From NCBI RefSeq assembly GCF_055900595.2, contig NZ_CM148325.1: a DNA stretch of 64,000 nt, one strand, 5' to 3'. Positions 6,901 through 34,610 of this stretch are shown here, piece after piece. Made by a program: the position numbers and the translations under genes. Each line of letters begins with the position of its first letter. The stretch's first letter is position 1. The notes below the pieces were generated by a model. It was not told where the DNA came from. It worked only from the letters and a program-made list of their open reading frames with translations, and did not search any database.

Positions 6901-7329
6901 GGTTGCCAGGGCGTTCATCGGGTAGATGATAATTGCTTTAACCCCGGCTTGTGACGCGCCCGCGCAGTGGTTGAGCAGCGGGAACATAAAGCATTCTGTT
7001 TTACCGGAGCCGGTACCGGTAGCGACCAGTGTCGGCTGTGGCGCGTCGCATCCCAGACGCTGAAATGCCCGGGCCTGATGCGCGTGCGGCGGGAACGGCA
7101 GCGTCAGATTAGGGAAAAAATTCAGCGGTAAGTCACTTTTACGAAACGGCAACTGGGCGGAAAGGTATGGTCCTTTCAGCAGCGTTTCGGGCTGGGCCAG
7201 AAATTGCTCCAGCATTGAGACATTATCGTTATTCTCACCGTTAAACAGCGGGCTGTTTAGCGGGAACGCCGCCCGTAAAAAGGCGGCAACGCTGTCGGCG
7301 ACCTGCCGACTGACAACGGACGGCAACAT
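988..7329 (-). CDS. Giant SF2 DEAD/DEAH-type helicase with Cys-cluster (Zn-ribbon/DUF1998-like) regions, DruE/DrmA-like, 2113 aa
   Basis: Motif I GTGSGKTE, motif II VVDELHTF, distant motif VI QRIGRAGR; several CxxC pairs (CRDCHATGW, CPICLK...CGHCGH, CSHC...CPKCG, CLGCG); start overlaps upstream stop (TGATG at 7327..7331). Confidence 0.65.
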   Translation of the reverse strand: MLPSVVSRQVADSVAAFLRAAFPLNSPLFNGENNDNVSMLEQFLAQPETLLKGPYLSAQLPFRKSDLPLNFFPNLTLPFPPHAHQARAFQRLGCDAPQPTLVATGTGSGKTECFMFPLLNHCAGASQAGVKAIIIYPMNALATDQASRFAKTIASDPQLHGKVTVGLFVGDSEIEPSKKMSAEKVITCKHTLRESPPDILLTNYKMLDYLLMRPGDQPLWRYNQPGSLRYLVVDELHTFDGAQGSDLACLVRRLKHHIGVDNQRFACVGTSATVGDELGQLLDYAKTIFDQPFTDDAVIREDRYTAAEYLQDYAIAYSQYPGPEVASALDPQSYATPVAYLNGQIPLWFSDSDLQLPDDLESDDGREKRIALGSLLRRHSVMHVLLHDLQGGILSERECLENLQVMLAESADHARRVLQSILALIAQARLEVPETEHDRQKRLQAKKARPVLPFVQLRSQLWLREMRRLVASVAKTPRLVFADDVAVEDREHYLPVIHCRDCHATGWASLRHGQSVQLETDLDGIYRQFFEKGRSIVLAFPDNNEKAVSGAHQKLCPICLKLNRQSSVQCGHCGHTELLQVLIPDMLKERKDELEFANECPYCNSKQGISILGSRAASLSAVMIHQLYGSQFNEHKKLITFSDSVQDAAHRASFFTARTWPLMIRGQIASVLGEKETLPLDAFAARVCQQTRERSPDDAHFAANFIAPNMQWLNDYQTLKNEGKLAENSDLPELVSLRLDWEVYSEFTLRARIGRTLEATGYAVAGVDKERFNPAITALHQQLCEELGDEMSGVSVEQVAHLALGVIWYQRQAGAVMHPTFESYRRDGTTFMMTQKERTSRYMPSIGPKTRKPAYASFEKINGFHRLIGAKSNPSWYQHWINRTLSNGNNLFISSVAETVLRRLFTALKIAGVVKDFDTKGREAWGLVPSALVVSRDVVQLNCSCCREVVRAPADQGWQWRNAPCLSLRCEGRYQEVDNMATWRWENMDIARVQGAEHTGLLSREDREATEKSFYRGNQPWNINLLSATPTLEMGIDVGDLSTVLLCSVPPAQANYLQRIGRAGRKDGNALNITVAEGNPHDQFFFEEPLEMMQGQVQAPGVFLNATAILERQLAAFCMDNWVKTGVPESAICKNVKQMLDELEFGRKSGFPYNLLRYIEQHHAEIAAQFTAIFPDLAAETRQQLLSYLQGAPGQRSLVQRIEEALKLLVEDRKSLRSRIDKLKRSIDKLENAPRDQNFDSDMRELTSERQALMALVNQINNKQTLNFLTDEGLLPNYAFPEAGITLRSVLWRRKEGGEAREYQNTTFEYERPASTALAELAPLNNFYAGGHKVEIEQIDLKVSEPENWRICSHCNYSENIDQTGDQHKYCPKCGTPGWADAGQKTTLLKLRQVYARASARDSQISDESDSREPAFFQRQLLVSFEKEDVSAAYAIEEGEVPFGFEFLSKVTLRDINFGKMADDANELMIAGEAKKRTGFKVCLGCGMVQRPRDHEPRHDLSCKYRTEPEKAKFEDYLYLYRQLESEALRILLPVSSYSNDRVVEASLGAAIQLGLKHYFKGNVDHLKGVVYREPENEGESWRQYLVIYDTVPGGTGSLKELMRTPDNLLKLLELAYQAIVECSCNHDTHKDGCYRCVYAYRDRGRMKYVSRDQARLLLAKILQARDSIRVIDSIKNISLEAMMGSELEKRFISCLQENKNLIVSRSYAHQGAGWIINTRSEPMMSWHLKAQVDLGAKEAVGIPCRPDYVLYPLMQSDAIKPVAIFLDGFAFHKNSVAEDVQKRQAIRDSDNFWVWTVTWADLKEPGLKHVQDVLGLGHNPDMKQPKFYNLFHDTNFAALEASFRERNSFALLLDYLADPGGRTQLWQRMAAAHAWVWLDVKKSQDAGTKQKYAYEMQENAPAWRLAELLPDEPFVFGGLLDSCNSSQQFIELASVLPQQAIKPTTSVAQMRSWLRLHICFDDRYTQDDGYEAGLNGFWRLVNLLQFLPDMTFTSRKAVHLPQESVDVKVTATPEAVPETDESWAEIIEFGLLSAEEIALLQSHSLSAPTLGYELQNDEGEIIAEADLAWPSQKWALIIDNQEFIPLFTTRGWHVAFGPIDEITLQHLSGGDK

Positions 7330-10300
7330 CAGGCGCTCTCCTTATCTTGTGCAAAGAACGCCCAGGCCACTTTGTAATCGTCTTCGCGATCCGGCTTGAT
7401 AAACGGAGCCTGCCAGGTGACGGTACGGCGCTCGCCTTCGTCGCTGCGGGTATAGTCATCAAAGGTGACGCTGACGGTACCGGTTTGCAGATGTTTGACA
7501 TCATCCCAGCCGATAGCCTGATCGGTGCAGTCACCGCCGGTCCAGTCCGGGCTGTCGACGTTAAAGACAAAGCCGTTTTTCAGGTCAGCTTTACGCGCAG
7601 TGCGAGGCAAGCCAACGCCCACCAGCCCTTTGCTTGGGGTAAAGATAATGCGACCGTTTTGATCGTACCAGGTATCCGCTTCGTACTGGCGCATCACCGG
7701 GAACTGAACGCGATAAATGGTAAGCAGTTCTTCGAGGGTTAACCCTAGCGCCTGCGCCACCAGTACGTCGATTTCCACCAGCGCCTGACGACGACTGTAG
7801 TCAGAGCGTAAGGCGCAGTTACGCTGCCACTCTGGGGTCAGATTGGTGAAGAAATCCTGGGGAAGCGGCGGGAGATCGCGGCTCCAGCGCTGGGTGTTGA
7901 AGTCTGGGGTGTAGCAGGATTGCCAGAGATCAGCGTAATCTTTCGTTAACACATTCAAAGCTAATGCTCTTGAGTTTGCACTCATTAACTCAACATAAGG
8001 GAAGCCACGCAATGTTGATTCATAAACATCCGCCCGCCCTGTTGTTTTCAAATAAAAATCAGCCACTATTGAATGGCAAAATGCAGAGAAACTTAGCAGG
8101 TTTATTGGCTCTCTAAATGTTGTTGAGAGTACAGGGTGTATATGAGCAACGTGCTTTGGAACTATGCTGGATATCATCGAGCGTTCTGATGATGCCCCAA
8201 ACATTCTTCGATTAACAAAACGATAATAGTCCGTCACCTTCCTCGGCTCGTCTTCATCCTGCTCTTTCCACGAAACCCGTGGGGTGCGCTTTGCATACTC
8301 CTGTGCATCACAGGCTGGAATATAGTTAGTGCGCGGCAAATAGTCGTCGGGCAGAGTTAGCAATTCTAGGTTATCGTATGCTTTATTCGTGTCACAAACC
8401 GCTCTAGGCGTATTGTAGAAAGGATTGCCAACAAAAAAATGAGGGCCAGACAAAACCCATTGTGATGCTTCTTCCGGGAACTGTGTATGTCGCTCAATTG
8501 TACCATCGCTTTGCTGATTAGTTTCATGCCACATTTCTAGAGAATAATATTGCCCCTGCAAATCACCTAATCGCCTAGGTTGTTTCGCAAACTTTTCAAG
8601 TACTGCAACCAATTGAGTAGCATGTAACGCAGGAAGACGGGCTTCATGTGCTGTAGTGCCAGCACTATCATAGAGACGCGAGAAAAGACCTAATTGCTTT
8701 AAATTTACATGCAAGACTCGATCGAAATGTCCCTGAAAATTCCATTTAACCTTTATTTTACCATCAATTTCAGTTTCTTCTTTTATCCCCGGAACAATGC
8801 CTTCCCCTTTATGTTCAAAACACGCATCAATAGTTTGAGGAATAAATAAATTTGCTATATTTGAGAATGCCACTATCTGAGAATAGGGGCCATACACATT
8901 AATGCTAAATAATGTCTGGTTATGCACCTCAGTGAATAATTTCGTTTCATTAATAAACTGAAAATGCGCCCTAAGCCTCGGATATACCGACGCACGCAGC
9001 TGCCCGCCTTTTGGGTCATCATAAATCCCTTCCGGGTGCAGGAACCCTGCCACGCCTTTCTCTGCCCCCAGACGCCAGGCCTGCGGCAGGAAGCATTTAT
9101 ACAAGTTGGTCTGCACCCCGCGCAGTACCGGGTAGTTCTGCTGCGCATTGAGGAAGTTTTGCATCCCTTCACAGCCTTCATACTCGCTGCGCCAGGCCGC
9201 TTCCAGCGCCGGGATCTGGTTAAAGGTATCAATACGCAACGTTGCCAGCTTCGATGCACTCAGCTTACGCAGCACAAATTCCGGCTCGTAATCACCCAGC
9301 ACGCCCGCTTCCTGCCATTCCACTTTCAGCCACGGCGGGTTTCCGAGCATCAGGTCAAAACCGCCACGCTCGGCAAACAAGTCGCAGAACTCCAGATCCC
9401 AGTGGAAGAAACGGTGCTGCTTTCTCAGGGCATCGACAATCGCCAGACGCGGCAAATGACGGAACAACACCTCGGTTTTCAGACGACCAGCAACGGAAAA
9501 CAGCGAAGACTCTTCTCGCAGCAGGCCGTCTTCGGCAAACAGATCGCCAGTGGTGTGCTCCGCAACTTCAGTGACTTTTTCCGTGATTACAATCCCGTCG
9601 AGCAGGGTTTCAATCTCAAACAACCAGGTGCCGCGATCCGGTAACTCATCGGCTTTGTCGATCGGCCAGAACCACAGCGCGCACCAGTAGTCCATCACCC
9701 AACGCAGCTTCTGGTAGGCGCTGTTATCTTCAAGACGACCGCTAAAGGTTTCATCTTTACTGCTCAGCGAAGAACGCGTCTGCTCGCTGTTTTCTGCCGG
9801 CCACACCGGGTAGCTGTCGGCGGTTTTCAGACGTTCTGCTTTAAGTTGCTGGCGATAGGTGTTCCACAGAGCTTCCACCTTTTCGCTGATACGCTGCACA
9901 TCAGCAATCTCATGCCCGGCAAAGCTTTTAATAAACTCTTTGCGCCAGCTGTCCAGGGCTTTGAAGTCATCCGGATAACGCTGCTTAACAGTTTTATCGC
10001 TGTAGTTAGCCATACCGCCGTCGGGCAGCAGGAAGTGAAAAATCTGCGTCTCTTCACGCGGCGTGTTCATCGCCAGTTCGACCGGCTCGCTGTTAAGCCA
10101 GCTCGGATCTTTGGCTTTTTTGTAGGTCAGTTCACTCTTGTTGAACACCTGACGGCGCGCGCCCACCAGTGAGTTACCGCAGTGCAGCTGGTAACCAAAC
10201 CACGGTACAAAGGCATCGCCACTGATGGCGTTCAACCACAGCGACACTTCCGCCAGTTCCACCGCCACCGGGTTTAAGTCCACGCCGAAAACGTTGTTGT

Positions 10301-12251
10301 CGGCAATGTACATTTTCACCCGCTGTAACTCCTGGGTGTAACGATCCTGCGGAATACGGCGACCTTCCGCCTGCTGCTTGTGGAACAGATACGCTTCCGC
10401 CAGCTGGTTGATGGCTTCGTTAAGGAACGCCGCGCTGCCCATCGCCGGTTCGCACACGGTGAGGTTTAAGATGGCATCAGCTTTGGCGTGCGGATCGCTA
10501 ATGGGATCAATCTGCTCCTTAAACAGTTCTTTCAGGGCATATTTAACCAGTGAGCGGGTCAGCACTTCCGGGGTGTAATAAGAGGCAGATTTCTCACGGT
10601 CGCGCCCGGCCATACGGTAGATAAAACTGCCTTTGCGGTGAATGCGCAGACTGCCGTCTTTCTCGTAGACCTTCTCGTCTTCGTGGTATTTGCCAATCTC
10701 ATCCTTACTGACGAAGTAACCCGTCTCCAGCTCGTTAAACTCTTCCCCGGCTTTCTTCACCTCGTAGAGATCTTCGCTGGCGAAGAATCCGCGATAGGAA
10801 AGCAGCGCCTCATACACCGCACCTAACTGGTTGATACCCAACTGGCGATAAGAAATACGTCCGCGGCGGTTAAAGCGCCCTTTGCCCGGGCGGCTTAACG
10901 ACATCGCCTGGATAATCTGTTGCAGGGTTTCGTTACGGAATACCACGCGGTTAAGAATGCGGGTGTTGTTGGCATCGAAAAGATGACTTTCCAGACGCGG
11001 GACGCTGAACTGATGACTATGGATGGTGATCCGGTCGCCGCTCTCCAGGTCACTCTGTATTTTCACGCCGCCGTTGTAGCCTTCGCGCACCAGTTTAAAC
11101 AGCATATTCAGGCTGTCGTGGAAGTAGCGCCCGTTGCGATCTTCTTCGCTGGTCAGCGGGATCATCTCCAGATCGCGCAACGTTTCCAGGCTGTAACCTT
11201 GCAGATAGGTTTTGGCGGTCATTGGCGCATAACCCAGCTCCGGGCGCGCTTCAATGTAGAACAGGAACAGCAGGCGGTACATGTAACGCAGACATTCGCG
11301 GCTCAGTTCATCCGGGTCCACCGCACGGTTACCGGTATAGTTTGCCAGGCCACGGTCGATCAGATAATGCATCGCTTCGTTGCCCAGCAGCTCAATACTT
11401 TCGCGCAGGGCATATTTCAGATCTTCCGAAACACCAAACGCATGTTTGTGCGAATTGTCATCCAGCGAGTCAAGATAAGGTGCCCCACTGCCCGGCAGCA
11501 GCGAATCTTTATGTAGCAACACTGCCGTCGCTTTCAGCGTATCCGTTTCACGACGACTTAAAATCTCTTCAAAATCAAAACGTAGCAGACGGTTTTGCGC
11601 CCACTTAGTACGGTCCAACAACAATAGCTGACGGTTACCGAGCAGCAGCACAAAACGCGGCGGTTCATTTTGAGTGAAGACCGCCGTAGAGAGCAGATCC
11701 TGCCAGCTGCGATATTCACCGTTGGCTTTTTTGCGCAGGCTGTCGCGCTTATGTTTGTCGGTATCCGCCGGGAATTGCGCGGTCAGTAAAGAGAGCGCCA
11801 GCGGATCCAGCGTTCCTTCTTCCTGATCGTGTGCTTCAACAATCCACAGCCACGGGCTACCGTCAGTGCTGTTGTAACGCGCCAGTACCGGCAGTGGTGT
11901 ATCGTCATCCAGCATTTGGATCTGCGGCGTAATTTCGTAGCCCAGCGCCTTTAACAATGGCTGCCAGCGATTACGTTGATCGGCCAGACGCTGCGGGATC
12001 TGACGCTGTTTTTCGTGCTCGGCAAGTTTGCGGAAAAACTCAGTCGCCAGACTGTTAAACTGGTTCCACGGAGCGCGGTATCCCGGCTCTACGTCTTTGC
12101 CCTGTTCACGAGCGGCACGCTCCGCTTCACGCGCTGCATTTTCCTGGGCTATCCAGGGTTCCAGCACATCGCGGATATCACTGGTGAATACCTCACCCAA
12201 ATAGTGGTTAGAGTAAAATTCGTTTTCGTTATTAATACCGACCAGCGCCAT
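7329..12251 (-). CDS. Large N6-adenine DNA methyltransferase (Eco57I/type IIG-like gamma class), 1640 aa
   Basis: AdoMet motif I-like VCEPAMGSAAFLNEA; catalytic-type motif GNPPWLK; HCGNSLVG motif; long N- and C-terminal extensions; start 2 nt after upstream stop. Confidence 0.65.
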   Translation of the reverse strand: MALVGINNENEFYSNHYLGEVFTSDIRDVLEPWIAQENAAREAERAAREQGKDVEPGYRAPWNQFNSLATEFFRKLAEHEKQRQIPQRLADQRNRWQPLLKALGYEITPQIQMLDDDTPLPVLARYNSTDGSPWLWIVEAHDQEEGTLDPLALSLLTAQFPADTDKHKRDSLRKKANGEYRSWQDLLSTAVFTQNEPPRFVLLLGNRQLLLLDRTKWAQNRLLRFDFEEILSRRETDTLKATAVLLHKDSLLPGSGAPYLDSLDDNSHKHAFGVSEDLKYALRESIELLGNEAMHYLIDRGLANYTGNRAVDPDELSRECLRYMYRLLFLFYIEARPELGYAPMTAKTYLQGYSLETLRDLEMIPLTSEEDRNGRYFHDSLNMLFKLVREGYNGGVKIQSDLESGDRITIHSHQFSVPRLESHLFDANNTRILNRVVFRNETLQQIIQAMSLSRPGKGRFNRRGRISYRQLGINQLGAVYEALLSYRGFFASEDLYEVKKAGEEFNELETGYFVSKDEIGKYHEDEKVYEKDGSLRIHRKGSFIYRMAGRDREKSASYYTPEVLTRSLVKYALKELFKEQIDPISDPHAKADAILNLTVCEPAMGSAAFLNEAINQLAEAYLFHKQQAEGRRIPQDRYTQELQRVKMYIADNNVFGVDLNPVAVELAEVSLWLNAISGDAFVPWFGYQLHCGNSLVGARRQVFNKSELTYKKAKDPSWLNSEPVELAMNTPREETQIFHFLLPDGGMANYSDKTVKQRYPDDFKALDSWRKEFIKSFAGHEIADVQRISEKVEALWNTYRQQLKAERLKTADSYPVWPAENSEQTRSSLSSKDETFSGRLEDNSAYQKLRWVMDYWCALWFWPIDKADELPDRGTWLFEIETLLDGIVITEKVTEVAEHTTGDLFAEDGLLREESSLFSVAGRLKTEVLFRHLPRLAIVDALRKQHRFFHWDLEFCDLFAERGGFDLMLGNPPWLKVEWQEAGVLGDYEPEFVLRKLSASKLATLRIDTFNQIPALEAAWRSEYEGCEGMQNFLNAQQNYPVLRGVQTNLYKCFLPQAWRLGAEKGVAGFLHPEGIYDDPKGGQLRASVYPRLRAHFQFINETKLFTEVHNQTLFSINVYGPYSQIVAFSNIANLFIPQTIDACFEHKGEGIVPGIKEETEIDGKIKVKWNFQGHFDRVLHVNLKQLGLFSRLYDSAGTTAHEARLPALHATQLVAVLEKFAKQPRRLGDLQGQYYSLEMWHETNQQSDGTIERHTQFPEEASQWVLSGPHFFVGNPFYNTPRAVCDTNKAYDNLELLTLPDDYLPRTNYIPACDAQEYAKRTPRVSWKEQDEDEPRKVTDYYRFVNRRMFGASSERSMISSIVPKHVAHIHPVLSTTFREPINLLSFSAFCHSIVADFYLKTTGRADVYESTLRGFPYVELMSANSRALALNVLTKDYADLWQSCYTPDFNTQRWSRDLPPLPQDFFTNLTPEWQRNCALRSDYSRRQALVEIDVLVAQALGLTLEELLTIYRVQFPVMRQYEADTWYDQNGRIIFTPSKGLVGVGLPRTARKADLKNGFVFNVDSPDWTGGDCTDQAIGWDDVKHLQTGTVSVTFDDYTRSDEGERRTVTWQAPFIKPDREDDYKVAWAFFAQDKESA

Positions 12252-12253
12252 GA

Positions 12254-15112
12254 TTAACCCTCCGCTCCGGTGATAACAGCAATTACCTGAATGTAGGGTT
12301 CTTTTTCAGTCGTCATGGTGTCCTCAATCCATTCGATATAGCTGTCAAAATTGTGTTCGATTTCGCGTTGTCTCTGCTCTTTACGGCTCTGCTTAACTGA
12401 CAATTGCTGTTTGTTATCGGCAAAATCCAGCTCAAGTTGGCTCAACTGCCGCCCACGCAAAACGTCCAGCTTTTGCAGATGCTCATTCAGTTGCTGGTTA
12501 ATGTGCGTTTCAAACGCATTCCGATCATGGATGAATACCTCCCGGGCATGAGCAATAGCCGCTTCCAGTAAATCCTGCTGGCGCTGGTGATTACGATCTT
12601 TACCGCCGCTGTTAGTCAGCTTGTTACTCAACTGCGGATGACGTTGTAAAAACTCAGCGAATGGCTGACTGCCGATTAGCGATTCACGGTTAAAGCTCAC
12701 CACTATCCACGGGTTCACCATCGGATGTGATTTACGGTTCGGGAATAACCCGGAAAGAATGAAGTGATCTTCATCGGGTTCAAGCAGGTATGGCAGACGG
12801 ATAACCGGTGCCTGATGACGACCAAAAGCCGAAGAGATTTTATCGTCCAGCCACTGCACTACCGGGTTGATTTGCCAGAGATACTGCACATCGGGCCAGG
12901 CATGTTGCTCACCGCGAGCGCGTGCAATCGCGTCGGTGATGACGGTTTTATCCTGACTTAAAAAGAGCTGCCAGTTCTCCGGGGCGATTTCAGGCGGTAG
13001 CTGGTTGAAGCGGCGGCGTAACTCCTCCGGTGCCACCAGCGACAAGGTATTATCAGGCAAGGTTTCATACTGGATAGTTTGACCACTGGCTTTCAGGTAA
13101 CCCAATGCTCTTTCACAGTACGCCTGTTCGCTGGCAAACAAGCTGGTGTCTGTTTCGATGACCATTGAGGCATCGCTGGAAACCGCACTGCATATTTCGC
13201 CAAACAGATCGTGTTCGGCGCTTTCCGAGACGTTGCTGTTCAGCAGTTGATCAAACAGGCTGGCACCATCATCCTGCATCATGAACTCTGCAACCTGCTC
13301 TTCTTCCTCTTCCTGGGTAAATTTGCCGGTAAACTCCGAACTGTCCCCAATGTTCTTCTGCGCCTGTTCGTCTTTGTTGATCAACACTTCCAGTACGCGC
13401 ATATCGCCATTGATCTGCGGTTCGCTGGCCTCGGTAAGCAGATAGCGGATTTGAGGCTGATGTTTTTGCCCATAGCGGTCAATACGCCCGTTACGTTGCT
13501 GGAATACCATCAACGACCACGGAATATCAAAGTGAATCATTTTGTGGCTAAGGTGATGCAGGTTGATCCCTTCAGATGCCACATCCGAACAAACCAGAAG
13601 ACGCAACGGCGACTGCGTTTTACCAAAGGCTTCTACGGTTTCCATCAACACCGTATCGCCCTGATCGCCGCGCAGCGTGGCGATCTGATCATCTTTCAAT
13701 TTCAGATCCGCTCGCAGTTGCTGTTCGAGGAACTCCAGCGTTTTAATGCTTTCGGTGAAGATCACCAGGCGATCTTCCGTGTTATTGGCTTTCCAGGCGA
13801 GGTCTTTTCGGATGGTGTCGAGCAGCAACTGGTATTTGCTAAACTGGCTGGCATCAATGTTATTCAGCGCCAACAGCAATGACTCCAGTTCGTTGATCTG
13901 GCTCTGGCTATTATGATCTTTACGGCTCTCAAGACGCTTCAGACGATTAGCCACTACGCTGGCACACGCCATCGGGCTGGAAAATAGCGCTTTTTCGAGG
14001 GTTATCTTGAACAGACGACCTTTGTTAGACTGGGCCTGTTCATCGTCATCATCACGGAACTGACTCTCAACCAGGCGACGGTATGCTTCTTCTTCGGCAC
14101 CGGATGCCAGGCGAGTCAGTTTGACAATATTGCGCTCGGGGAACTCGCCAGACATCTGATCTTTCACGTCTTTTTTGAAGCGACGGACAACCAGATTTTT
14201 ATCGGCAAAGTCGGCGTATTCATACTCTTTCGGGTTGGCGATCGCCGTCGGGTCAAGCATGTTCATCAGGCTGGCAAAACTTTCAGCTTTACCATCATGC
14301 GGCGTTGCTGAAAGCATAATCAGCGTATCGCTGCGCCCGGCGAGCAGTTTTGCCAGTTTACTGCGTAACGAACTGGTTCCACGTTCTGCGACGTTATGGG
14401 CCTCATCAATGACAATAATATCCCACCAGGCATTTTCCAGATGGTGACGATATTCAATATCTTGTTTCAGCGTATCGATGGAGATAATGGTCTTGTCAAA
14501 ATAGTGGAACGGGTTGTGGTTGGTAGGGATGCGGTTACGCACTTTTTGTAAACCAGCAGAATCCAGGCGGGTCAATGGGATCGCAAAACGGCTCCAGAAC
14601 TCCTTCTGGAATTGTGTCAGCATCGATTTAACCGCCAGAACCAGAATACGTTTTCCGCGCCCACGACGGATCAGTTCCGAAACCAGAATACCCGCTTCCA
14701 GCGTTTTACCCAGACCGACAGCGTCGGCAATGAGTATCCGCTGACGCGGTTGTGCCAGCGCCATCCGCGTAGGATCGAGCTGAAACGGCATGGAATCCAT
14801 CGCCGCCAGATGTCCAAAATGGACTTTACTGTCTGTCGGTACGCGTTGGCGTAACTGACTTTCAATATACAACTGTGCCGCCTGATAATTGGCGGATTCA
14901 TCTTCCACCAAATGCGTTTTTGCGGGATCAAGGATCTCTACTTTTTGTTCCAGTTTGGTCAGAAATAACCCTTCTTTACCGCGCACAAGCTCTGAAATAC
15001 CATCGCAGGTCAGCAAATACCCACCATCACCACTGTCATCCGCCCGGCGAATACGCCATTCGGCATCACGAATAACCACCCGCATACCAGGTGCATAATT
15101 TTGCTTATTCAT
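12254..15112 (-). CDS. SNF2-family (SF2) helicase/ATPase, 952 aa
   Basis: Walker A ADAVGLGKT, DEAH box IVIDEAHNV, helicase-C region with QQRNGRIDRYGQ; first gene of the coupled operon. Confidence 0.7.
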   Translation of the reverse strand: MNKQNYAPGMRVVIRDAEWRIRRADDSGDGGYLLTCDGISELVRGKEGLFLTKLEQKVEILDPAKTHLVEDESANYQAAQLYIESQLRQRVPTDSKVHFGHLAAMDSMPFQLDPTRMALAQPRQRILIADAVGLGKTLEAGILVSELIRRGRGKRILVLAVKSMLTQFQKEFWSRFAIPLTRLDSAGLQKVRNRIPTNHNPFHYFDKTIISIDTLKQDIEYRHHLENAWWDIIVIDEAHNVAERGTSSLRSKLAKLLAGRSDTLIMLSATPHDGKAESFASLMNMLDPTAIANPKEYEYADFADKNLVVRRFKKDVKDQMSGEFPERNIVKLTRLASGAEEEAYRRLVESQFRDDDDEQAQSNKGRLFKITLEKALFSSPMACASVVANRLKRLESRKDHNSQSQINELESLLLALNNIDASQFSKYQLLLDTIRKDLAWKANNTEDRLVIFTESIKTLEFLEQQLRADLKLKDDQIATLRGDQGDTVLMETVEAFGKTQSPLRLLVCSDVASEGINLHHLSHKMIHFDIPWSLMVFQQRNGRIDRYGQKHQPQIRYLLTEASEPQINGDMRVLEVLINKDEQAQKNIGDSSEFTGKFTQEEEEEQVAEFMMQDDGASLFDQLLNSNVSESAEHDLFGEICSAVSSDASMVIETDTSLFASEQAYCERALGYLKASGQTIQYETLPDNTLSLVAPEELRRRFNQLPPEIAPENWQLFLSQDKTVITDAIARARGEQHAWPDVQYLWQINPVVQWLDDKISSAFGRHQAPVIRLPYLLEPDEDHFILSGLFPNRKSHPMVNPWIVVSFNRESLIGSQPFAEFLQRHPQLSNKLTNSGGKDRNHQRQQDLLEAAIAHAREVFIHDRNAFETHINQQLNEHLQKLDVLRGRQLSQLELDFADNKQQLSVKQSRKEQRQREIEHNFDSYIEWIEDTMTTEKEPYIQVIAVITGAEG

Positions 15113-15335: not shown

Positions 15336-18300
15336 TTATCCAGCGATAACATAACTCCTAAGGTCATTACCCGGGGCAACAGCTCGCGCTCGCGTGTTTG
15401 CCAGCCGTTCAACTTGCTGCGGTACTCGCAGAGCAAAATCAAAGAAGGTGTCTTCAATACAGCGCCAGTAGCTAAGCCCCATGTCGAGCAGGACATAATG
15501 CTGACTGCCATCGCTGAAGGTGACTGTCAGTTCTCGTCCATGCTCCGTACTCTGGTTATCCCCCGTTAACCAGCTAATTGCTCCCGGCCACGCAGGCCCC
15601 AGATATCCTTCTTCAAGTAAAGTGGTCACAACCTGCTGACGATCTTCCTCATTAAGCCACGCGTTATAGAGAGCGTTGTGTTGGCGAGAGTTGTAATCCA
15701 ATTTTTTGACGCAAACAGTGAGGCTGGCGCGTTCCGCCATTCCCTGTTCAACCAGCTCGGTTAAGATTTCACCTAACATACGCGCCGTGAATGGGCTATT
15801 AAGATAACGATCGCTGTACTCAACATGCGTTATCTCTTTGTGGCGGGTAAATGCCTGCTTCCAGCCAGCGTGCTGTTGCGTGACTAACGACCAGAAACGC
15901 GAACCAAACCCTTCCAGCGGCCCGTCCAGTTGCTCGCAGAGGTTGATGCGCACCGCCCCGGTGGGTAAGGCGGGCAGTAAATCTTCTGCACTTAAGGTCT
16001 GACCCGAGAAGGTTTTTCCGGACGTTCCTTTAAGTGTCACTACTGGTGAGGACGCACTTTGTCCCCATAATTCACCAGGTGCAACGGTAGCGCTGTCGTC
16101 TGCGGCCCACTGTTGGCTTTGCCCTTCGCGAGTCACCTGCGCAAGCCAGCGCCCCTTTCCTTGCATGAGTTGCGCAGTGGCAATGGATTTCACTTGTAAG
16201 CGTCCTCCCGGCATCGCCGCCAACGCGGAAAGCTGATGTCTGGAGCTATCAGTTAAGTTTTCCAGCGGCGTGGCCACCAGCAACTCAACATTCCCACCGG
16301 AGGAGGCAAACTGGAGCAACTCTTTAAATAATGGCCATTGGGCAAAGTCCCACTGTTCCTGCGGCCCCGCAAGAACCAGCGAGCAGGAGTCATAAATCTC
16401 GCTGTTCAGGCATTGCGCAATACGTAAACTCAGAGGGTTAGTTTCAACCCGGCTACCATCGACGAAGTACTGATATTCTGGCGCGAGGTTAAGTCGCTGC
16501 AACCGTACATTGGTAAGCAGGGTTAATGCATGGTGACGATCTAATCTGTTGACATAATGCTGACTGTCGTAGCTGAGCAAGCAGTGGTGACAGAATTTAT
16601 CGCAACTGCAATCGAGCAATTTTCTGGCGTAATTAAAGACATCAGCCCAATGGTCGATCAATTGCACTGCATAACCTGCACCACCCGCATTATTGTCGTA
16701 AATGAAGATGGAATATCCGGTATAGCCATTGATATCGCGCGCTTGCTGCGTCGTCACGCCCAGCTCAGTATTTTCGATACCCAATTTATGCGCTAACCCT
16801 TCACGCAAAGCGACCGCAAGGGAACGCGCGGCAACCTCATCACGGATCAACAGGCCATTATCATCATTGAGTTGCAGCTCAACCATATCTGTACGACTGC
16901 TATACCCCAACCACAGATCTTTATGCACATGACCGTGGCACAATTTATTGCTCCCCTGACGATCGTTACTGCCCCCTCGCAACAGGTAATGCGTATTTTC
17001 CCGCTCTGGGTTCTTTAGATTTTCAGGGGTACGCTGGGGTTGAGTTTGAGATTCTGCCCGACCACATGAGAGGCAAATTGCGTAGCCGTGCCCAAATTCC
17101 CCTTCACTGAAGTGGAACAATTCCCCACTATGGCTAAAACGGTAACGTCCTAGCCCAGCATCGGGTAAAGAAACCCACACCGAAGACGGTACAAGAACAC
17201 GTGGATCTTTCCAGGGAAGTTGTGCAGGCATGGATACATCATTATGTGCCTGATAACGAATATCTGTCGCAAAACCAACAGGCTGTAAATAACGCTTCAC
17301 ATCAAGTTGCTGTATATCCGCTTTGCAGTGACTACATTCGACAGGATGGGTAGCACTGGTTGCCCCCGCACCACATTTACGGCAATGCCAGAACCACGGA
17401 ATATGATGATCGCCTGACAGCTCCTGCCCGCTGGCAAGTACCTTGCCAAGCATAATGCCCGAGGAACGATATACTTTTCCGCCCAATACCACATCTGCAC
17501 CAGGCGCATACTCGCGTAATGCTGTAGGTAGATCACGGCAGGGCAATTTTTCAATACGACGAGAAAAGCTTTCTCCCCCTTCATTAGGGTCAGCCTGAGT
17601 AGCTTTTATTGCGCGACGTTTTTCCAGCTCATCTGCCGTCAGATAATTGAAATTGACGACACCAACCGGGAAACCATGCCCTGGCAGGAACGCTTCACTA
17701 ATGAGTTTAGAAAACAGATATGCACCGCGATAATCACGAAGCTGATAAGCGATGGCTTTACCTGCTGGCGTTTCTTCCCACGCGCTGTTATCCGCTTTCA
17801 ACGCTTCGATATTTTCCAACAGTATCGCAAGTTGGCTTCTCCAGCGGATATCAACCTGCTGCATCATTGCTTGTGTGCGGGTCAAGAGCTGGGTTGCCGT
17901 CAATGACATCAGGACGGTTCCCTGAGTAAGGCGTTTAAGTTTATCCGCCAGCTGATCGGCCTGGTTATTTAACCAATGGAGAAAACGAAGACACTGGCTC
18001 TCATCACCTTCAAAGAACCATTTGCAACTCAGTTTTGTCGCATCAGGAACTTCAGCTCGTAAAAACAGACCTAAAACCAGGGCATTAACATGTCGTTGAA
18101 CAATACTGCTGCTCCCAAAACGAACCCGTGGCGCACTGGCAGTAGTGTTGAACGCCCAGAGGGGGTCTTTGAATACCTCCATTCCATGCGCCGTGTTTTT
18201 ACATAACGTAATGGCAGCAGATGCACTCTCTCCACGTCGACCCGCGCGGCCTGCACGCTGCAAATAATTTGCCGGAGCTGGAGGAACGTTGTTCATTGCC

Positions 18301-21300
18301 ACCAAACTCATACCACCAATGTCCACCCCCATCTCCATGGTCGTGGAGCAGTTCAGCACATTAACTTTGCCTGACTTAAATTGTTTTTCATTAAACTGGT
18401 TCTGCTCAGGCGTTCTCTGCGCAGAGTGTTCCTCCAGACGATACCAGCTATCTTTCAGGGCCAGTCGGTCGCTGCGAGTAGACCATAATCCTTCCTCGCG
18501 GGCATGTTGAATCAGCGCATTACTTTCCAGCCACTCCAGGCGTTCTTCTCGGGCGATTTCTCCACCACCAGACAAACGCCAGTGACGTACAGGAAGCTCA
18601 GGCATTTCAATCAACACTGCTTTTTCAGGTGCAATTTCTTTGCTACCCGGCAAATACGGAGAGTATCCCAGCAACGTGACGTCTAACGCACGTCGAGTAT
18701 AGGGGCAACGCCACACTTGCTTTGGACTGTAAAATTCAGCCTGTTGTTTAATATCCAGCTGATAACCCGACTCAAACTGACGTAAGCAGGGTCGAATTGC
18801 ATCCCAGACCTCAATCATTAAGTGGTTAACTAACGATTTCCAGTGAGCCTGCTCAGGTTGTATTGCCGGAAAGACTGCAATTAATAGCTTAATGACCCGG
18901 TTATAATGGCGATCGCGTATTTGTGGCCAAAGTTGATCACGTTTCTGCCCTTTGTTTTTTTTATCTGGACCCTGGAGCATTTTTACCGGGAAACGAGCCC
19001 CCATCCAGCGAGGGTATTGCTCGTTTTCGTAAAAAACGGCACTGTTTTCACGTATAAAGAAATCAAGAGTAATCTTCAATAAATTACGCCATTCCGCTAA
19101 TTGCTTATCGGGATCGGGTAATAATGTCTTCCAGTCCTGCGGGCAGGTTGTAACTTTATCAATAAATGGATAGTGAATGGCTACCAGACCCAGACTTTCG
19201 AGGGTCCAGGCATTTTTAGGGCGGCGACCAAATTCACTGTATAAACAAAAATCTGCAAACTGTTGTTTAGTAAGATCAAGCCCAGACAATTCTTTAAAAC
19301 TGCCTCTCATTCTATCGGCAAGGTCCACACTGCCAACCAGCTGTTCAGACAGTGTTTGCCATGACATGGTTTTCTTCTGCTGATTGCCAGAGTTAGCCTG
19401 GAGTATTTGCATCGCTTCAGCATGATCCGGGCTTAAGGAACTCACCATCGGCTCGATAATTTTAAGTGCCTGAATGTCCGCCGGGCTAAGCTCTTCATTA
19501 GCAACCATCGATTTTTTCAGCGCGTCAATAGAGTTTTTTAAAGGAAGGATAGAAAACTGGGCAATAAAACTCTCTAACAATGCGCAGTGTGCCGGGCTGA
19601 GCTTTGCTGATGGCTCATTAATATTGGCCAACTCCTGGTAGCAAAGAGCTCGCAACGTCGCTTTATCGGCATCCTGCTGTAAGCGGGCAGAAATGCGGGC
19701 AGTGCCCTGACGTGAATCCGTAAAGGTGAGCAGACGTCGACCATTAAACGGTCCTAACTGCTCTTCTCTTGTCTGCGGTAATGGTGAAAACTCCAGCAGA
19801 GTAGGAATAATTTCATTTAAAAAAAAGGGCGCGCCAAGTCGAAGCGGACGGAATAAAGGATTATTTTTTCGTTGGGTGTCACCACAGCAAACACAAGCAA
19901 AGGAATTATTACGTCCCTCACCTCGAGATTCCGGTCTTAACAGGTTTATTTCATAGTGCTTTTGCGCTTCACTATCAATTTTCCCCGCCGTCGTTTCTTC
20001 CAGTGAAATGATATATTTTTCACCATCGCTCGCAATCAGACGATCAAATTGAGAGTTATTGTCTAATTCGTCGTTGTCTTCATCTTCAGAATAAACATCT
20101 ACATCAAGAGCAAACTCATCCACTTCGGCAGCGGCGGGTTGCGCTACCAACCAGTTCGTTCCATCACCGCGCATCTCCTCTTTGGCAGACAAATAAGCTG
20201 AACCACACCCGGAGCAACGTAAAACTTCAAATACCGGCGCACCACAGTCACAATATTGGCGCTGCTCAAACCATACCTGACCAAATGGCCAGTCACTCTG
20301 ATTTAATTCATGTGCTTTATGTGAGCATTGTTTGTTTGAACATGCCCATAGACCCGCCAGTGTTCTGATAAATCCATGCATACGTAATGGCGTAAAAGCC
20401 AGTTCACCTTCTCGCGATCTTGCCATTAGATCGAGGAGTTGCAGTAGCTCACGGTGATTAATATCTGGCCAGGTTCTTCTGGCAACATTGAGCAACTCAC
20501 TCAAACGTACTGCCTGCCGTCCGGGATGAGTTAACGCCTGACGCAATTGCTGGGCCACACGGTAATGACAAAGCTGTTGGTAAAGATCCTGAGGGCTCAG
20601 AGATTTAAGAGAAGTTAAAGATGTGGGGTATTCATGACGAATCAGCGACTCCGATACCCGCGGTATTTGTCGATAGCCGCGAACCACTTTGACATCACGT
20701 TCTGTAACGCCCGCAAGATCAGCGACAAATTTAGCAAGCTCCTTATTACCTTCAGGAGAGTCTTCACCAATAGTGGCAGAGGTCGCGATAATCTGCACAG
20801 GTTTATCTGTGCCAGGTCCAACATTGAAAGCCTGCATAACACGACGTAAAAGCAGCGCTAACTCAGCAGCCTGAGAACCAATATAACTATGGGCTTCATC
20901 CAGGACGATATACTTTAACATCCCCTGAGACTTTTCGATGATTGGGGCATCTTTACGACGAATCAGCATATATTCCAGCATGGTGGTATTCGTCACCATG
21001 ATGGAAGGTGGTGCTTCGTAAATGGCTTCCCGACTCAAAGCTTGTTCAGGTACTTTCAACTGATCTTCCTGAACTTCGTATTTGGTATGCCGGGTTTCGC
21101 CATTATATAGCGCGAAGCGTATTTTCCCCTTAAATCCGCGCGTCCATTCGCGAAGCCGCTCCTGTTGGCTGTTAATTAATGCATTTAACGGATACAAGAA
21201 AATAGCTTGTGTCCCTGTTAGTGACTGACGGGTCGATTTTTGCTGACGAATAAGATCTTCCAGGACCGGTACCATAAAGCATTCTGTTTTCCCGGATCCC

Positions 21301-30250: not shown

Positions 30251-31180
30251 TTGAACAGCAGAAAATTTGCGAGCATGATCGCAATTATTTCACTGCCAGG
30301 GATATCAATGGCTTCCAGTAAATCGCTACAGCAGGCAATTGCCAATATAAAAATCTGGCACAAGGGTGAACAGCGCGCGCCGCATAAGCCATTGTTATTG
30401 CTATACGTATTAGCGGGATACCTGAATGGACATCCGCGCCTTTTCGATTATGGCTCGGAAATCTACGAACCTCTGCACAGTTTACTGGAACGTTTTGGGC
30501 CACAGCGTTCACAGTACCGACCTGATATGCCGTTCTGGCGATTACAAGGCGACGGATTCTGGCAATTACACAATGCCGAGCTTTGCTCAACAGCAGGGAG
30601 CAGCCGACAACCGCCAGTGAAGGAACTGAACGAATACCACGTTGCAGGCGGTTTCGATGAACAGCACTACGCCCTGGTAACCGGCAATAAAAAACTCATC
30701 AATACTCTGGCGCAACAGATACTCGAAGCGCACTTCACCGAGAGTATTCAGGAAGAAATTGCTGACGAGCTGGGTTTTGATCTCCAGCAAATCCGTAAAC
30801 AGCGCGACCCGTTATTTCGCAAAAATGTATTACGCGCTTATAAATACCAGTGCGCGATATGTGGCTTTAATATGCGCCACGATGACACCACCGTCGCGTT
30901 GGAAGCGGCGCATATAAAATGGAAACAGCACGGCGGTCCTTGTGAAATTCCTAATGGCCTGGCGCTTTGCGCAATTCACCATAAAGCCTTTGATAAAGGA
31001 TCGATTGGCCTGGATGAAAATATGCGGGTACTGGTCTCGGATGCGGTAAACGGCGGAGGGATCGTTGAGAAACTATTCTGGGATTTTGACGGGAAAACTA
31101 TTGCGTTGCCGCAGGTGCGTAAAAATTACCCTTATGAGGGGTTTGTGGAGTGGCATCGGAAAGAGGTTTTTAGGGGGTGA
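30251..31180 (+). CDS. HNH endonuclease, putative restriction-type; true start may be an internal Met
   Basis: HNH motif CAICGFN...EAAHIKWKQHGG...LCAIHHKAFD at the C-terminus; divergent from the neighbouring HNH gene. Confidence 0.5.
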   Translation: MNSRKFASMIAIISLPGISMASSKSLQQAIANIKIWHKGEQRAPHKPLLLLYVLAGYLNGHPRLFDYGSEIYEPLHSLLERFGPQRSQYRPDMPFWRLQGDGFWQLHNAELCSTAGSSRQPPVKELNEYHVAGGFDEQHYALVTGNKKLINTLAQQILEAHFTESIQEEIADELGFDLQQIRKQRDPLFRKNVLRAYKYQCAICGFNMRHDDTTVALEAAHIKWKQHGGPCEIPNGLALCAIHHKAFDKGSIGLDENMRVLVSDAVNGGGIVEKLFWDFDGKTIALPQVRKNYPYEGFVEWHRKEVFRG

Positions 31181-31798
31181 GTTTGATAACTATCGCAGTA
31201 TGTTCAATATTGCTGACATAATCAGTGCAGGATCTTGCCGCTAGTTTACAACCCGCCTTCGATAGCGGCGCAAAACGAGTTCTGTTGCCGATATCCTCGG
31301 CTATGGATATTCCAACAGTTCCGGCAGGTTTACCAAGTTTCAGGTAAGTTTTTACTCAGAACCGGTTGATGCGGTTTATAAGGCGCTGGATGTGAATTAA
31401 CACATTCCTCAGCTTATTTACAAAAGGATTATTCCCATTTGATATAATATCAGTGCCAATTTACTTTTTTCAATGGAATATATCTCGGCTAAATAACAAT
31501 AAAACTTATCGCTAATGGATTAAATAAACAATTTTCTAATTTATTTCACCACCTTTGATATAGAAATTGATGGTGTTGTCGCTGCCATTGCTTATGGTGA
31601 TGATAAAATCCACGTTTCTGGATCGGTGCGTAGAAAATCATCACTACCTTGATATTTTGATGCGATATGATCATACCGTTCCGTAGTACCAATTTCAACT
31701 TCAGGCTAAACCCCAACATTAATAAAATTAGAGTTATTCACTGATTATATTATCAATAATATAATCAGTGAATAACATGGAGTATATAATAAATTGCT

Positions 31799-33844
31799 CT
31801 AATCATTTCCCTTACGAATATATGGGCCAAAAGCCCAAGAATCATAATAAGGGTGATGGACTAATTTTTCATTAAATCGAACACTATAAGTTAATTTTTT
31901 TATATTTTTACGTACAGCATTAATACTGGGCAAAGAGGAAAGATAATCTATAAACTTATCGATAGTGATTTTCCCTTCGCAACACTCAAACCCATCAATG
32001 ATATTTTTCGCCATTTTTCCATTTTCATTTGTTTGATATATCACTCCAGGTATTCGTTGAAAAAAACTAGATAATGCATATTTGTCCGCTACATATGTAT
32101 CATCCACATGATATTTCCCACCGAGCATAGTTGTAGTAACAATAAGCTTATACACACCTTTGGGTTGCCATGTTGATGGTAGTTCGAATTCTTTAATGAT
32201 CACATCAAGATGATTAAGATAATGTTCAGAAATTCGATTTATTTGTTGAAAATAAGAACGCATAAATTTATTATTATGATCATGTATTAATGAGCTATCT
32301 CCAACGATGTTACACACTTGCTGATAGTACTTACCATAATATATTGGTTGACCATTTGATTTTAGTTCTGTAAAAATCAAACAATCATCCAGGAGAATCA
32401 CGCAATCGCACTGATAATTAGCATGAGCATCAATTGGAGAAGCTTTAATCCCCGCATCACGAACTTGTTTTATAAATTGTTGCTCATGAAATCGCCCTTT
32501 ACTTGCTTGAGAAATTTTTTTGGAACCAAATAATGACATTAGAGAGCGAGTCACTGAGCTATTTGCTATTAATGCAGGCATTAAGCATAAACCGTCCATA
32601 CAGGGAATAAATGGGCAATCATTAAGATCATGTGATTTTGAATTGAAGGTAAAATAATCTATCAGTTTTTTTGCTGCATCTGCTGCAATCCCCTTACGTT
32701 GAAAGAATGATAACCAACTCTCACGGTTTTTTATGACCAGCCAGCGATCCAACTGTAGGGGTATAGGTTTTGTCGATGAAAATCTTTTGCTCATTTCTTC
32801 TTTAGATAACTCGACTAAACATTGATAAGCGTGCACCCAATTAAATAATGATATATTCCCATATTCTTCATGAAGGTCATCAGGAGACATATTTTCCAAC
32901 TCGCTTAAATGAAATGAGCTAAAAACGCCATCAGAATTTAAGTAAGATGGCATATGATCCTTTACCCAACTATTTAGATGAAAATGTTTGTTACTAAATT
33001 CATGAACTTCGCTATATAGATGTGACGCTCTCATCATTAGTCTATTTCTTGCAATCTCATAATCTCGGTATAAACAAAAACTATCAACCTCAAGAGAGTA
33101 AATGTTATTATCCAATTTTGTAAATACTGCACTACTTAGTCTGAAAAAGTCTCTTACTCTGCTTAATGAGTCAAAAACATTCCACTCATTAAGGTACCCT
33201 CCCATTGAAAGCAAGGTTTGTTTATTCACACAAGAAGTTAGTTTCAATGGCCCATGAGTCCGTAAATAAGAAAATATTCTTCCGGTGTAATTGGCTACCT
33301 CATCAAATGCCCTATCGATAACTCGAAAATATTCGATATCAGGTTCAGCATGAATATTAATATTTTCAGTAACGATAAATAATGGAAAAATCCTCTTCAT
33401 TTTTTTAGGATCATTGACCACAACCAAGGATGATAATGATGATAAAAACATCTCACAAAACATGATGAGATTAAGTATTAATGCATGTGATTTTTTTGTA
33501 TTTTTACGCCAAATACCAGCACATTTTGCAGCCGCAAAGAAAGAATTATTTATATCATGCATAATTTTACATTGACTCTCGAACTCAGAGATTAGTTCAA
33601 TGTTATCAGGAAATGAGTTTACTAGCTCATTAATACATTTTTTGAATGTATTGTTATACTCAACTTCAGTCTGAACTGAAAATCTATTATAATAGATGGA
33701 AGATATTCTCAGCACATCCAAGGCGATATCTATACTAATATCATCTCTTTTTATGTACTCACAAAAAAAAAGAACAAAACTGTTTCGGGTCGTTAGCAAG
33801 ATTACTAATTCTAGTGGTATCATAAACTTTTTCCATTTTTCCAT
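31799..33844 (-). CDS. Hypothetical protein, 681 aa, AT-rich orphan
   Basis: Long uninterrupted ORF, K/N/I/F-rich composition typical of low-GC foreign DNA; no motif recognised. Confidence 0.45.
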   Translation of the reverse strand: MEKWKKFMIPLELVILLTTRNSFVLFFCEYIKRDDISIDIALDVLRISSIYYNRFSVQTEVEYNNTFKKCINELVNSFPDNIELISEFESQCKIMHDINNSFFAAAKCAGIWRKNTKKSHALILNLIMFCEMFLSSLSSLVVVNDPKKMKRIFPLFIVTENINIHAEPDIEYFRVIDRAFDEVANYTGRIFSYLRTHGPLKLTSCVNKQTLLSMGGYLNEWNVFDSLSRVRDFFRLSSAVFTKLDNNIYSLEVDSFCLYRDYEIARNRLMMRASHLYSEVHEFSNKHFHLNSWVKDHMPSYLNSDGVFSSFHLSELENMSPDDLHEEYGNISLFNWVHAYQCLVELSKEEMSKRFSSTKPIPLQLDRWLVIKNRESWLSFFQRKGIAADAAKKLIDYFTFNSKSHDLNDCPFIPCMDGLCLMPALIANSSVTRSLMSLFGSKKISQASKGRFHEQQFIKQVRDAGIKASPIDAHANYQCDCVILLDDCLIFTELKSNGQPIYYGKYYQQVCNIVGDSSLIHDHNNKFMRSYFQQINRISEHYLNHLDVIIKEFELPSTWQPKGVYKLIVTTTMLGGKYHVDDTYVADKYALSSFFQRIPGVIYQTNENGKMAKNIIDGFECCEGKITIDKFIDYLSSLPSINAVRKNIKKLTYSVRFNEKLVHHPYYDSWAFGPYIRKGND

Positions 33845-34525
33845 ACATCCTATTGTCTAAATTACTATAAAACTAGCCACTTAACTAATAATTATAAATT
33901 TCATCTTTTACACCTTGCATTTTTATAACCAATGAAATCTACAACAAGCAACTGATGGATAATCCGATATTGGTCGCATTTAATGGCATGGTAGCAAAGT
34001 TTTCATCACATACCTCCTTTGCACCAGAATAAACGCCAGAGACCTGAAATTGCGAGTACACTACAGAAATTGTACTGCCGGTCCCATCAGCATAAAACCA
34101 TAGTTACACAGGTAATCATCATTATTCACCAAGATAATAAATATTATTCGGTAGAATAGCGTTCTCAGGTGGTCAGTAAAATTGTCTTCAACAAGATGTC
34201 TGCGCATCTCGTCTGCTAGCCCTACATAACTGCTCTCGACCGAAACTATTTATTGAATGTTCACCAAGGTGGGCGTGGAGACAAAATGACGTCTTTTGAT
34301 ATTAGCTACCTGAGCCACATGGTCAAAACGTTCAAGTAGCATAGCGAAACCACCCTGCCCACGTAATGTGGACGATGCAGCTCCCAGCCAGAGCAAACTT
34401 GGGACCATCGACTACAAAATGAAGAATACTGAACTGCTTTTCTGGCAGGCCTATATACTGCACGGATATGGGTGATTTCAGACACAAAAAAAGCCGCTCT
34501 TAAGCGACTCGATTTGCATACGGTG

Positions 34526-34610
34526 TGGTGCCGAAGGCCGGACTCGAACCGGCACGTATTTCTACGGTTGATTTTGAATCAACTGCGTCTACCGATTTCG
34601 CCACTTCGGC
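34526..34610 (-). tRNA. leuX: tRNA-Leu (anticodon CAA)
   Basis: Reverse complement reads GCCGAAGTGGCGAAATCGGTAGACGCAGTTGATTCAAAATCAACCGTAGAAATACGTGCCGGTTCGAGTCCGGCCTTCGGCACCA, 85 nt with CCA end and CAA anticodon in the loop. Confidence 0.9.

Follow-up and report, generated by a model that had tools for sequence, protein, structure and literature searches.

Intrinsic terminators of Enterobacteria are stable hairpins that lie soon after a stop codon, are co-oriented with the gene they follow, and are succeeded by a U-rich stretch. The 3' stabilising stem-loops (e.g., those of the REP type, which block 3' exonucleases) are strong hairpins in 3' untranslated RNA for which a perfect U-tract is unneeded; REP/BIME elements are multi-copy and G+C-rich. 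At the junctions of insertion sequence (IS) circles and of tandem ISs, two inverted arms are found 2 bp apart, one carrying a -35-like hexamer and the other a -10-like hexamer. An internal -35/-10 pair between abutted inverted ends is reminiscent of the junction promoters of IS circles.

The palindrome described here lies on an E. coli chromosome beside the tRNA-Leu gene leuX, downstream of an uncharacterised gene for a 681-aa protein, within a stretch of 64,000 nucleotides that was analysed as a whole and is called the window. With intrinsic terminators it has in common a stable hairpin soon after the stop codon, the co-orientation with the gene and a following U-rich stretch, and it is the sole such signal downstream of that gene. 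In contrast to them, its stem is far longer (20 bp, about twice the usual length) and more A/U-rich, its U-run lies 5 nt off the stem base, its tail score is mediocre, and it is known here from sequence. It shares with the stabilising stem-loops a strong hairpin in 3' untranslated RNA; it differs from REP/BIME elements in being single-copy and A/T-rich, and its sequence is not similar to theirs. The spacing of its arms and their hexamers is that of the IS junctions, but no IS carrying these arms occurs in the scanned collections, no transposase is nearby, and the palindrome is single-copy. It is probably an ordinary feature: an unannotated hairpin at the 3' end of an uncharacterised island gene, or that gene's terminator.

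Structure of the palindrome and its place in the leuX hotspot

The features of the locus, in window coordinates, are as follows.

31225 to 31683, plus strand: remnants of an older occupant of the site (brxL 3' end, intergenic stretch, PLD-like 5' end)
31684 to 31732, no strand: 49 bp from the left edge of the module to the palindrome; the BREX/PLD locus of other E. coli is homologous up to 31683 only
31717 to 31732, minus strand: A/U-rich tail beyond the stem, read along the gene as TCTAATTTTATTAATG in the window; 35 of 37 other copies have TCTAATTTTTTTAATG
31733 to 31776, no strand: perfect inverted repeat with arms at 31733-31753 and 31756-31776 and a 2-nt centre (CA)
31777 to 31798, minus strand: 22-nt 3' untranslated spacer from the UAG stop codon to the stem
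31799 to 33844, minus strand: uncharacterised 681-aa open reading frame (about 33% G+C over 32001-34000)
34526 to 34610, minus strand: tRNA-Leu (CAA), leuX

The sequence of the palindrome is GTTATTCACTGATTATATTAT-CA-ATAATATAATCAGTGAATAAC, and the repeat finder gives its two 21-nt arms (left arm GTTATTCACTGATTATATTAT, right arm ATAATATAATCAGTGAATAAC) as 100% complementary. The Watson-Crick symmetry is perfect, with zero G-U pairs. Folded as RNA or as single-stranded DNA, either strand forms a 20-bp stem with a 4-nt loop. The RNA fold has a free energy of -23.2 kcal/mol on both strands (z = -8.1 and -9.8), the DNA fold one of -17.3 kcal/mol (z = -8.3), and none of the shuffles folds as well. This is the longest perfect hairpin of the window, the runner-up having a stem of 13 bp; the longest stem in 30 composition-preserving local shuffles reaches only 8-13 bp. 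The palindrome is thus confirmed as real and far beyond chance. The preliminary description had reported a near-perfect 14-bp stem with a 4-nt loop at 31739-31770, about 30 bp after the stop codon. The place of that repeat holds, but its size was underestimated: the 14-bp stem is present as the inner part of the 20-bp stem, and the arms are perfect. The distance of about 30 bp agrees with the 28 nt that separate the inner core from the stop codon (UAG at 31801-31799, minus strand), whereas the full stem begins after only 22 nt.

The palindrome is situated between two convergent genes, the 681-aa open reading frame on the minus strand and an HNH restriction gene on the plus strand that ends at 31180. 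The window as a whole belongs to a patchwork defence island beside leuX, with ahr, idnK and idnDOTR to the right of the tRNA gene. UTI89, SCU-115 and other strains with an integrase island at leuX lose their homology to the window at 34543-34549, within the last 18-24 nt of the tRNA; the repeat at the leuX 3' end (34526-34549) is the expected island attachment repeat. The window strain itself has no integrase island at leuX. Homology breaks at 31683 and again inside the leuX 3' end, so the 681-aa gene with its flanks (about 31684-34525) forms one variable module in the hotspot. The palindrome sits at the 3' end of the only gene of this module, 49 bp inside its left edge.

To the left of this edge, the 3' end of brxL (31225-31404) is followed by the 5' end of a PLD-like gene (first ~60 codons, about 31520-31683), and the segment from 31225 to 31683 is 84% identical to the intact BREX locus of strain UTAK-18. 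These sequences are the remnants of a BREX system, an earlier occupant of the hotspot severed at 31683. In many other E. coli, homology to the window is lost as early as ~31181-31196, where different defence genes (e.g., McrBC) take over.

Farther left, the window holds an OI-172-like defence island (988-28694), a fragment of nanM and a divergent pair of HNH genes, the fragment lying between the other two.

988 to 15112: ARMADA-II-like genes (DrmD/DrmMI/DruE-like PADLOC matches)
15336 to 21659: DruE
21650 to 25009: DruH
25221 to 28694: ZorA2/B2/E2
29521 to 31180: divergent HNH pair, a 216-aa HNH endonuclease (minus strand) and a 309-aa restriction endonuclease (plus strand, ending at 31180)

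The stretch from 988 to 28694 matches the OI-172 island of bioRxiv 10.1101/2025.09.22.677730, a paper that makes no mention of leuX, terminators or the 681-aa gene. The HNH pair is widespread in E. coli beside truncated nanS/nanM, and RefSeq annotates its 309-aa protein as a phosphorothioated-DNA-binding restriction endonuclease. A perfect 11-bp hairpin (28705-28730, plus strand; TCCGTGAAAGT-TAAG-ACTTTCACGGA, -15 kcal/mol) is found 10 nt past the stop codon of zorE, and no T-run comes after it on the plus strand.

The 3' tail and a possible end of the 681-aa transcript

The palindrome's position, its strand and its tail are all consistent with a 3' hairpin or an intrinsic terminator of the 681-aa gene. 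The RNA hairpin is stable (-23.2 kcal/mol, z = -8.1 for the palindrome as RNA), it is co-oriented with the gene on the minus strand, and it follows the stop codon by only 22 nt. A pattern scan finds the palindrome to be the sole terminator-like site on the minus strand between the 681-aa gene and position 31000. The site 49 bp from the breakpoint at the module edge is also where a cassette's own terminator is expected, which counts for the terminator reading.

On the minus strand, the tail of 35 of the 37 aligned copies reads TCTAATTTTTTTAATG or is one T longer, with a T-run of 7-8, and the RNA next to the stem is UCUAAUUUUUUU in these copies and UCUAAUUUUAUU in the window. The window copy has a private T instead of A at 31723 (present in the window and in the copy L031), which interrupts the run of seven T on the gene's strand. 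The tail holds 5 U in its first 8 nt and passes a simple terminator scan. The onset of the T-run is 5 nt past the stem base rather than abutting the stem. On a score of the d'Aubenton-Carafa type, the tail reaches 2.06-2.23 on the gene's strand versus 0.66 on the opposite strand, where the tail (ATGGAGTATATAAT) is not T-rich. The terminator of leuX and two other canonical terminators in the window score 3.8-4.3, and ~10% of local 15-mers in this A/T-rich region match or exceed the tail score of the window copy.

The stem departs from the textbook form as well. A G+C-rich stem, especially at the base, is lacking: the G+C content is 20% over the 44 nt, the scan counts 4 G-C pairs among 20, and the base of the stem is GUUAUU/AAUAAC. 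The canonical terminators of the window have stems of 8-13 bp with 41-67% G+C, as against 20 bp and 20% G+C in the palindrome. The earlier suggestion of a weak, A/T-rich terminator thus fits the anatomy of the locus (co-oriented, 22 nt away, the only site, with a T-run), while the G+C content, the offset of the T-run and the tail score fall short of the textbook form. The long A/T-rich stem, the displaced T-run and the mediocre tail score therefore leave the reading of the palindrome as a 3' hairpin or weak intrinsic terminator of the 681-aa gene at about an even chance.

Were this reading correct, RNA polymerase that passes the 681-aa stop codon would transcribe the 44-nt segment, which would fold into the 20-bp hairpin, and the A/U-rich tail (UCUAAUUUUUUU in most strains) would come after it. 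The hairpin would most likely act as a moderately efficient intrinsic (Rho-independent) terminator, as an mRNA hairpin that blocks 3' exonucleases, or as both, and would also prevent read-through antisense into the convergent phosphorothioate-dependent HNH restriction gene. From the sequence, we infer that transcription may end or pause at the palindrome.

Distribution, variation and competing readings

In E. coli, the palindrome and the 681-aa gene occur together essentially always, which speaks for the reading as a 3' hairpin or terminator; UTI89, 536, IHE3034 and the O145:H28 strain RM13514 are among the carriers. A 211-bp query around the palindrome is found in 339 of 5426 complete E. coli genomes, one per genome and always on the chromosome, and the 681-aa coding sequence at an identity of at least 99% is found in 340 genomes of the same set. 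A sensitive 81-bp search recovers no further loci; the two places per genome that it reports are both strands of one palindrome. Beyond E. coli genomes, the exact 20-mer arm is present in one contig among 100,044 species genomes, with both arms at the palindrome's own locus (the contig is labelled as a Lachnospiraceae MAG, and 3.6 kb of it are 99% identical to the window), and in four contigs of the viral collection, each again the palindrome's own locus with both arms. A gapped half-site pattern retrieves 29 metagenome contigs, 27 of which hold the palindrome locus and two of which are unrelated. In both unrelated contigs, the 12-mer half-site TTCACTGATTAT forms inverted pairs and is all that is shared: in L024 (10349-10391), as a hairpin directly after lepA that is flanked by further copies of CACTGATT; in L025 (578-610), as a palindrome between divergent IS200-like tnpA and tnpB genes. 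These two matches are judged to be coincidence.

Since a single locus is seen everywhere in the scanned collections, the palindrome does not count as a repeated element, and no insertion sequence there ends in its arms; it is not a REP, ERIC or IS-type repeat. The search for the same palindrome elsewhere in the genome, proposed at the outset as a check, came back empty: the palindrome is single-copy in each genome, and no further half-site stands above chance in the window. Rfam at permissive thresholds gives only a chance-level match to a microRNA model (21 bits versus a gathering threshold of 99, E = 0.4), and searching the plasmid and phage collections with the 117-bp 3' flank gives only chance-level A/T-rich matches.

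Homologues of the 681-aa protein occur in Salmonella enterica (72-75% amino-acid identity), a metagenomic sequence (56%), Izhakiella, Xenorhabdus and Pectobacterium (50-52%), Pantoea (40%) and further metagenomic sequences (37-38%). Nucleotide homology to Salmonella is 76% and confined to the coding sequence (31803-33830), ending at the stop codon; the Salmonella DNA downstream of the homologue is unrelated to the window. Salmonella, Izhakiella, Xenorhabdus and Pectobacterium lack the palindrome downstream of their homologous gene, and a terminator-like site on the same strand is found near the homologue in Pectobacterium only, ~100 nt downstream. The distant homologues share the coding sequence alone, so covariation across genera cannot be assessed. 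Absence from homologous islands had been named beforehand as evidence against the hairpin; the palindrome is kept in the E. coli carriers (339 versus 340 genomes) and is absent in other genera, a split outcome, and it belongs to the E. coli version of the module. The Salmonella enterica contig L011 has an unrelated palindrome of its own (8237-8285), A/T-rich and perfect over 20 bp around a 9-nt loop, which abuts the stop codon of a YebC-like gene, ~190 nt downstream of the 681-aa homologue, with no T-run on either side.

The E. coli copies are about 99% identical to one another. Across the 37 aligned copies, the 44-bp palindrome carries five rare SNPs and one 5-bp duplication, all of them one-sided or in the loop.

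31754, C>T: palindrome centre, in two copies (L027 and L031), yielding a spacer-less 44-bp perfect palindrome
31756, A>T: within the palindrome
31768, G>T: within the palindrome
31773, T>C: palindrome arm, in LCP30S3_I5
31774, A>T: within the palindrome
5-bp duplication in one arm: L022 7146-7194, a copy that also has a T8 run

No compensatory pair was found in these 37 E. coli copies, so the variants lend no support to the pairing. By manual reading of the alignment, the change at 31773 gives a G-U pair in the minus-strand RNA and an A-C mismatch in the plus-strand RNA, a single, weak hint that favours the gene's strand.

The foremost rival explanation is that the palindrome has no selected function and is a by-product of the history of an A/T-rich, horizontally acquired segment. 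Its origin could be an inverted duplication or a hairpin-templated correction near an illegitimate recombination joint, and at 44 bp it would be too short for instability. The breakpoint 49 bp away, in a patchwork of gene remnants, agrees with such an origin, although it is not at the palindrome itself. A recent duplication at the DNA level would give the perfect Watson-Crick symmetry without G-U pairs; the variants are all one-sided, including the arm duplication of L022 and the change at the centre of L027 and L031 that removes the spacer; and other genera lack the palindrome at their homologous loci, which resemble the window no further than the stop codon. The unrelated A/T-rich palindrome of the Salmonella locus suggests that such palindromes may be common in DNA of this kind. 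Selection leaves no clear trace, either: common polymorphisms number 0 inside the 44 bp versus eight in 195 bp of non-coding flanks, which points against neutrality but is not significant (~1.8 expected inside), and the contrast is biased, as the pattern by which 29 of the 37 copies were retrieved leaves no freedom at 24 of the 44 positions. The palindrome is thus not demonstrably more conserved than its flanks. Neutrality would, however, make a coincidence of a perfect 21-bp repeat that begins 22 nt after a stop codon and has a T-run on the correct strand. A palindrome without function is considered doubtful, if the most tenable of the alternatives.

A second alternative is regulation of the module through the palindrome, as the operator of a dimeric protein or as a nucleoid-protein or cruciform site. 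Its dyad symmetry, perfect over 44 bp, is of the kind typical for operators, and sigma-70-like elements (TTCACT, 17 nt, TATAAT) are placed symmetrically on both strands; these motifs, however, follow from the symmetry, and promoter-like sites are not in excess (19 versus 15.8 in shuffles). The module has no regulator gene, and the palindrome occupies the gene's 3' end, outside the promoter region, with only pseudogene remnants beyond. Matches to the full or half site with at most 2 mismatches number 5 in the window, including 2 self-matches, versus an expectation of 1.6; a count of 5 was seen in 1 of 100 shuffles. Fifteen consensus strings of known regulators and sites (Fur, LexA, CRP, ArgR, IHF, FNR, ArcA, Lrp, DnaA, Fis, NagC, MetJ, TyrR, PurR and dif), were also tried, and none scored above shuffles. 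The protein-binding palindrome offered as the other option in the preliminary description thus finds no support in extra sites above chance, a regulator in the module or a consensus match, and the locus lacks what marks a transcription-factor operator, namely a promoter region together with a cognate regulator or further sites. An operator is improbable.

Still less probable is a DNA-level rather than RNA element, e.g., a cruciform-prone or recognition site that serves the neighbouring candidate NERD-like nuclease gene or the exchange of cassettes in the leuX-distal defence hotspot, in which case the perfect symmetry would be kept for protein recognition or recombination.

Two features speak for a mobile element: the palindrome has the edge of a variable cassette of the island hotspot close by, and its abutted arms with their -35/-10-like pair are similar to IS-circle junction promoters. 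It would then be a remnant or site of such an element, either the terminal inverted repeats of an IS or MITE in abutment, or an att/dif-like site for insertion of the 681-aa cassette. This reading is already largely refuted and extremely improbable: there is one locus per genome in 339 E. coli, where an IS or MITE would show multiple copies or solo arms at element ends; the arm and half-site scans (100,044 species genomes, viral and metagenome contigs) yielded one locus, always with both arms, plus the two chance 12-mer matches; the flanks (...AAATTAGA and ATGGAGTA...) hold no direct repeat and thus no target duplication; neither a transposase nor an integrase adjoins, and hence no recombinase at an element boundary as an Xer/dif or integrase att site would have; the match to dif is 16 of 28, equalled by 34% of shuffles; and the cassette edge is 49 bp away, while the island attachment repeat is at leuX (34526-34549).

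The 681-aa protein and the meaning of the hairpin

Searches of Pfam, NCBIfam, PADLOC and PDB sequences assign the 681-aa protein to no significant family; its sole PADLOC match is weak, to the candidate family PDC-M29B (E = 0.0012). The motif D480...E493-L-K495 is invariant among eleven homologues, the most distant of them at 36% identity, and a weak NERD match is seen in the homologue from Pantoea. Together, the invariant D...ELK motif and the Pantoea match make the protein a candidate PD-(D/E)xK, NERD-like nuclease. The gene is found in islands or ICE in E. coli, Salmonella and Pectobacterium, and these contexts in several genera suggest that it may be an undescribed defence gene.

If the palindrome is a terminator, it would simply mark the 3' boundary of the transcription unit of a candidate defence nuclease gene and would introduce no new principle. 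The native 3' end would be useful for annotating or cloning the 681-aa gene. As an unusually long, A/T-rich, perfect hairpin, it could also serve to probe how much departure in stem composition and U-tract spacing is tolerated in horizontally acquired DNA. The more interesting object is the 681-aa protein, with its invariant D...ELK motif and its presence in the islands of several enterobacterial genera.
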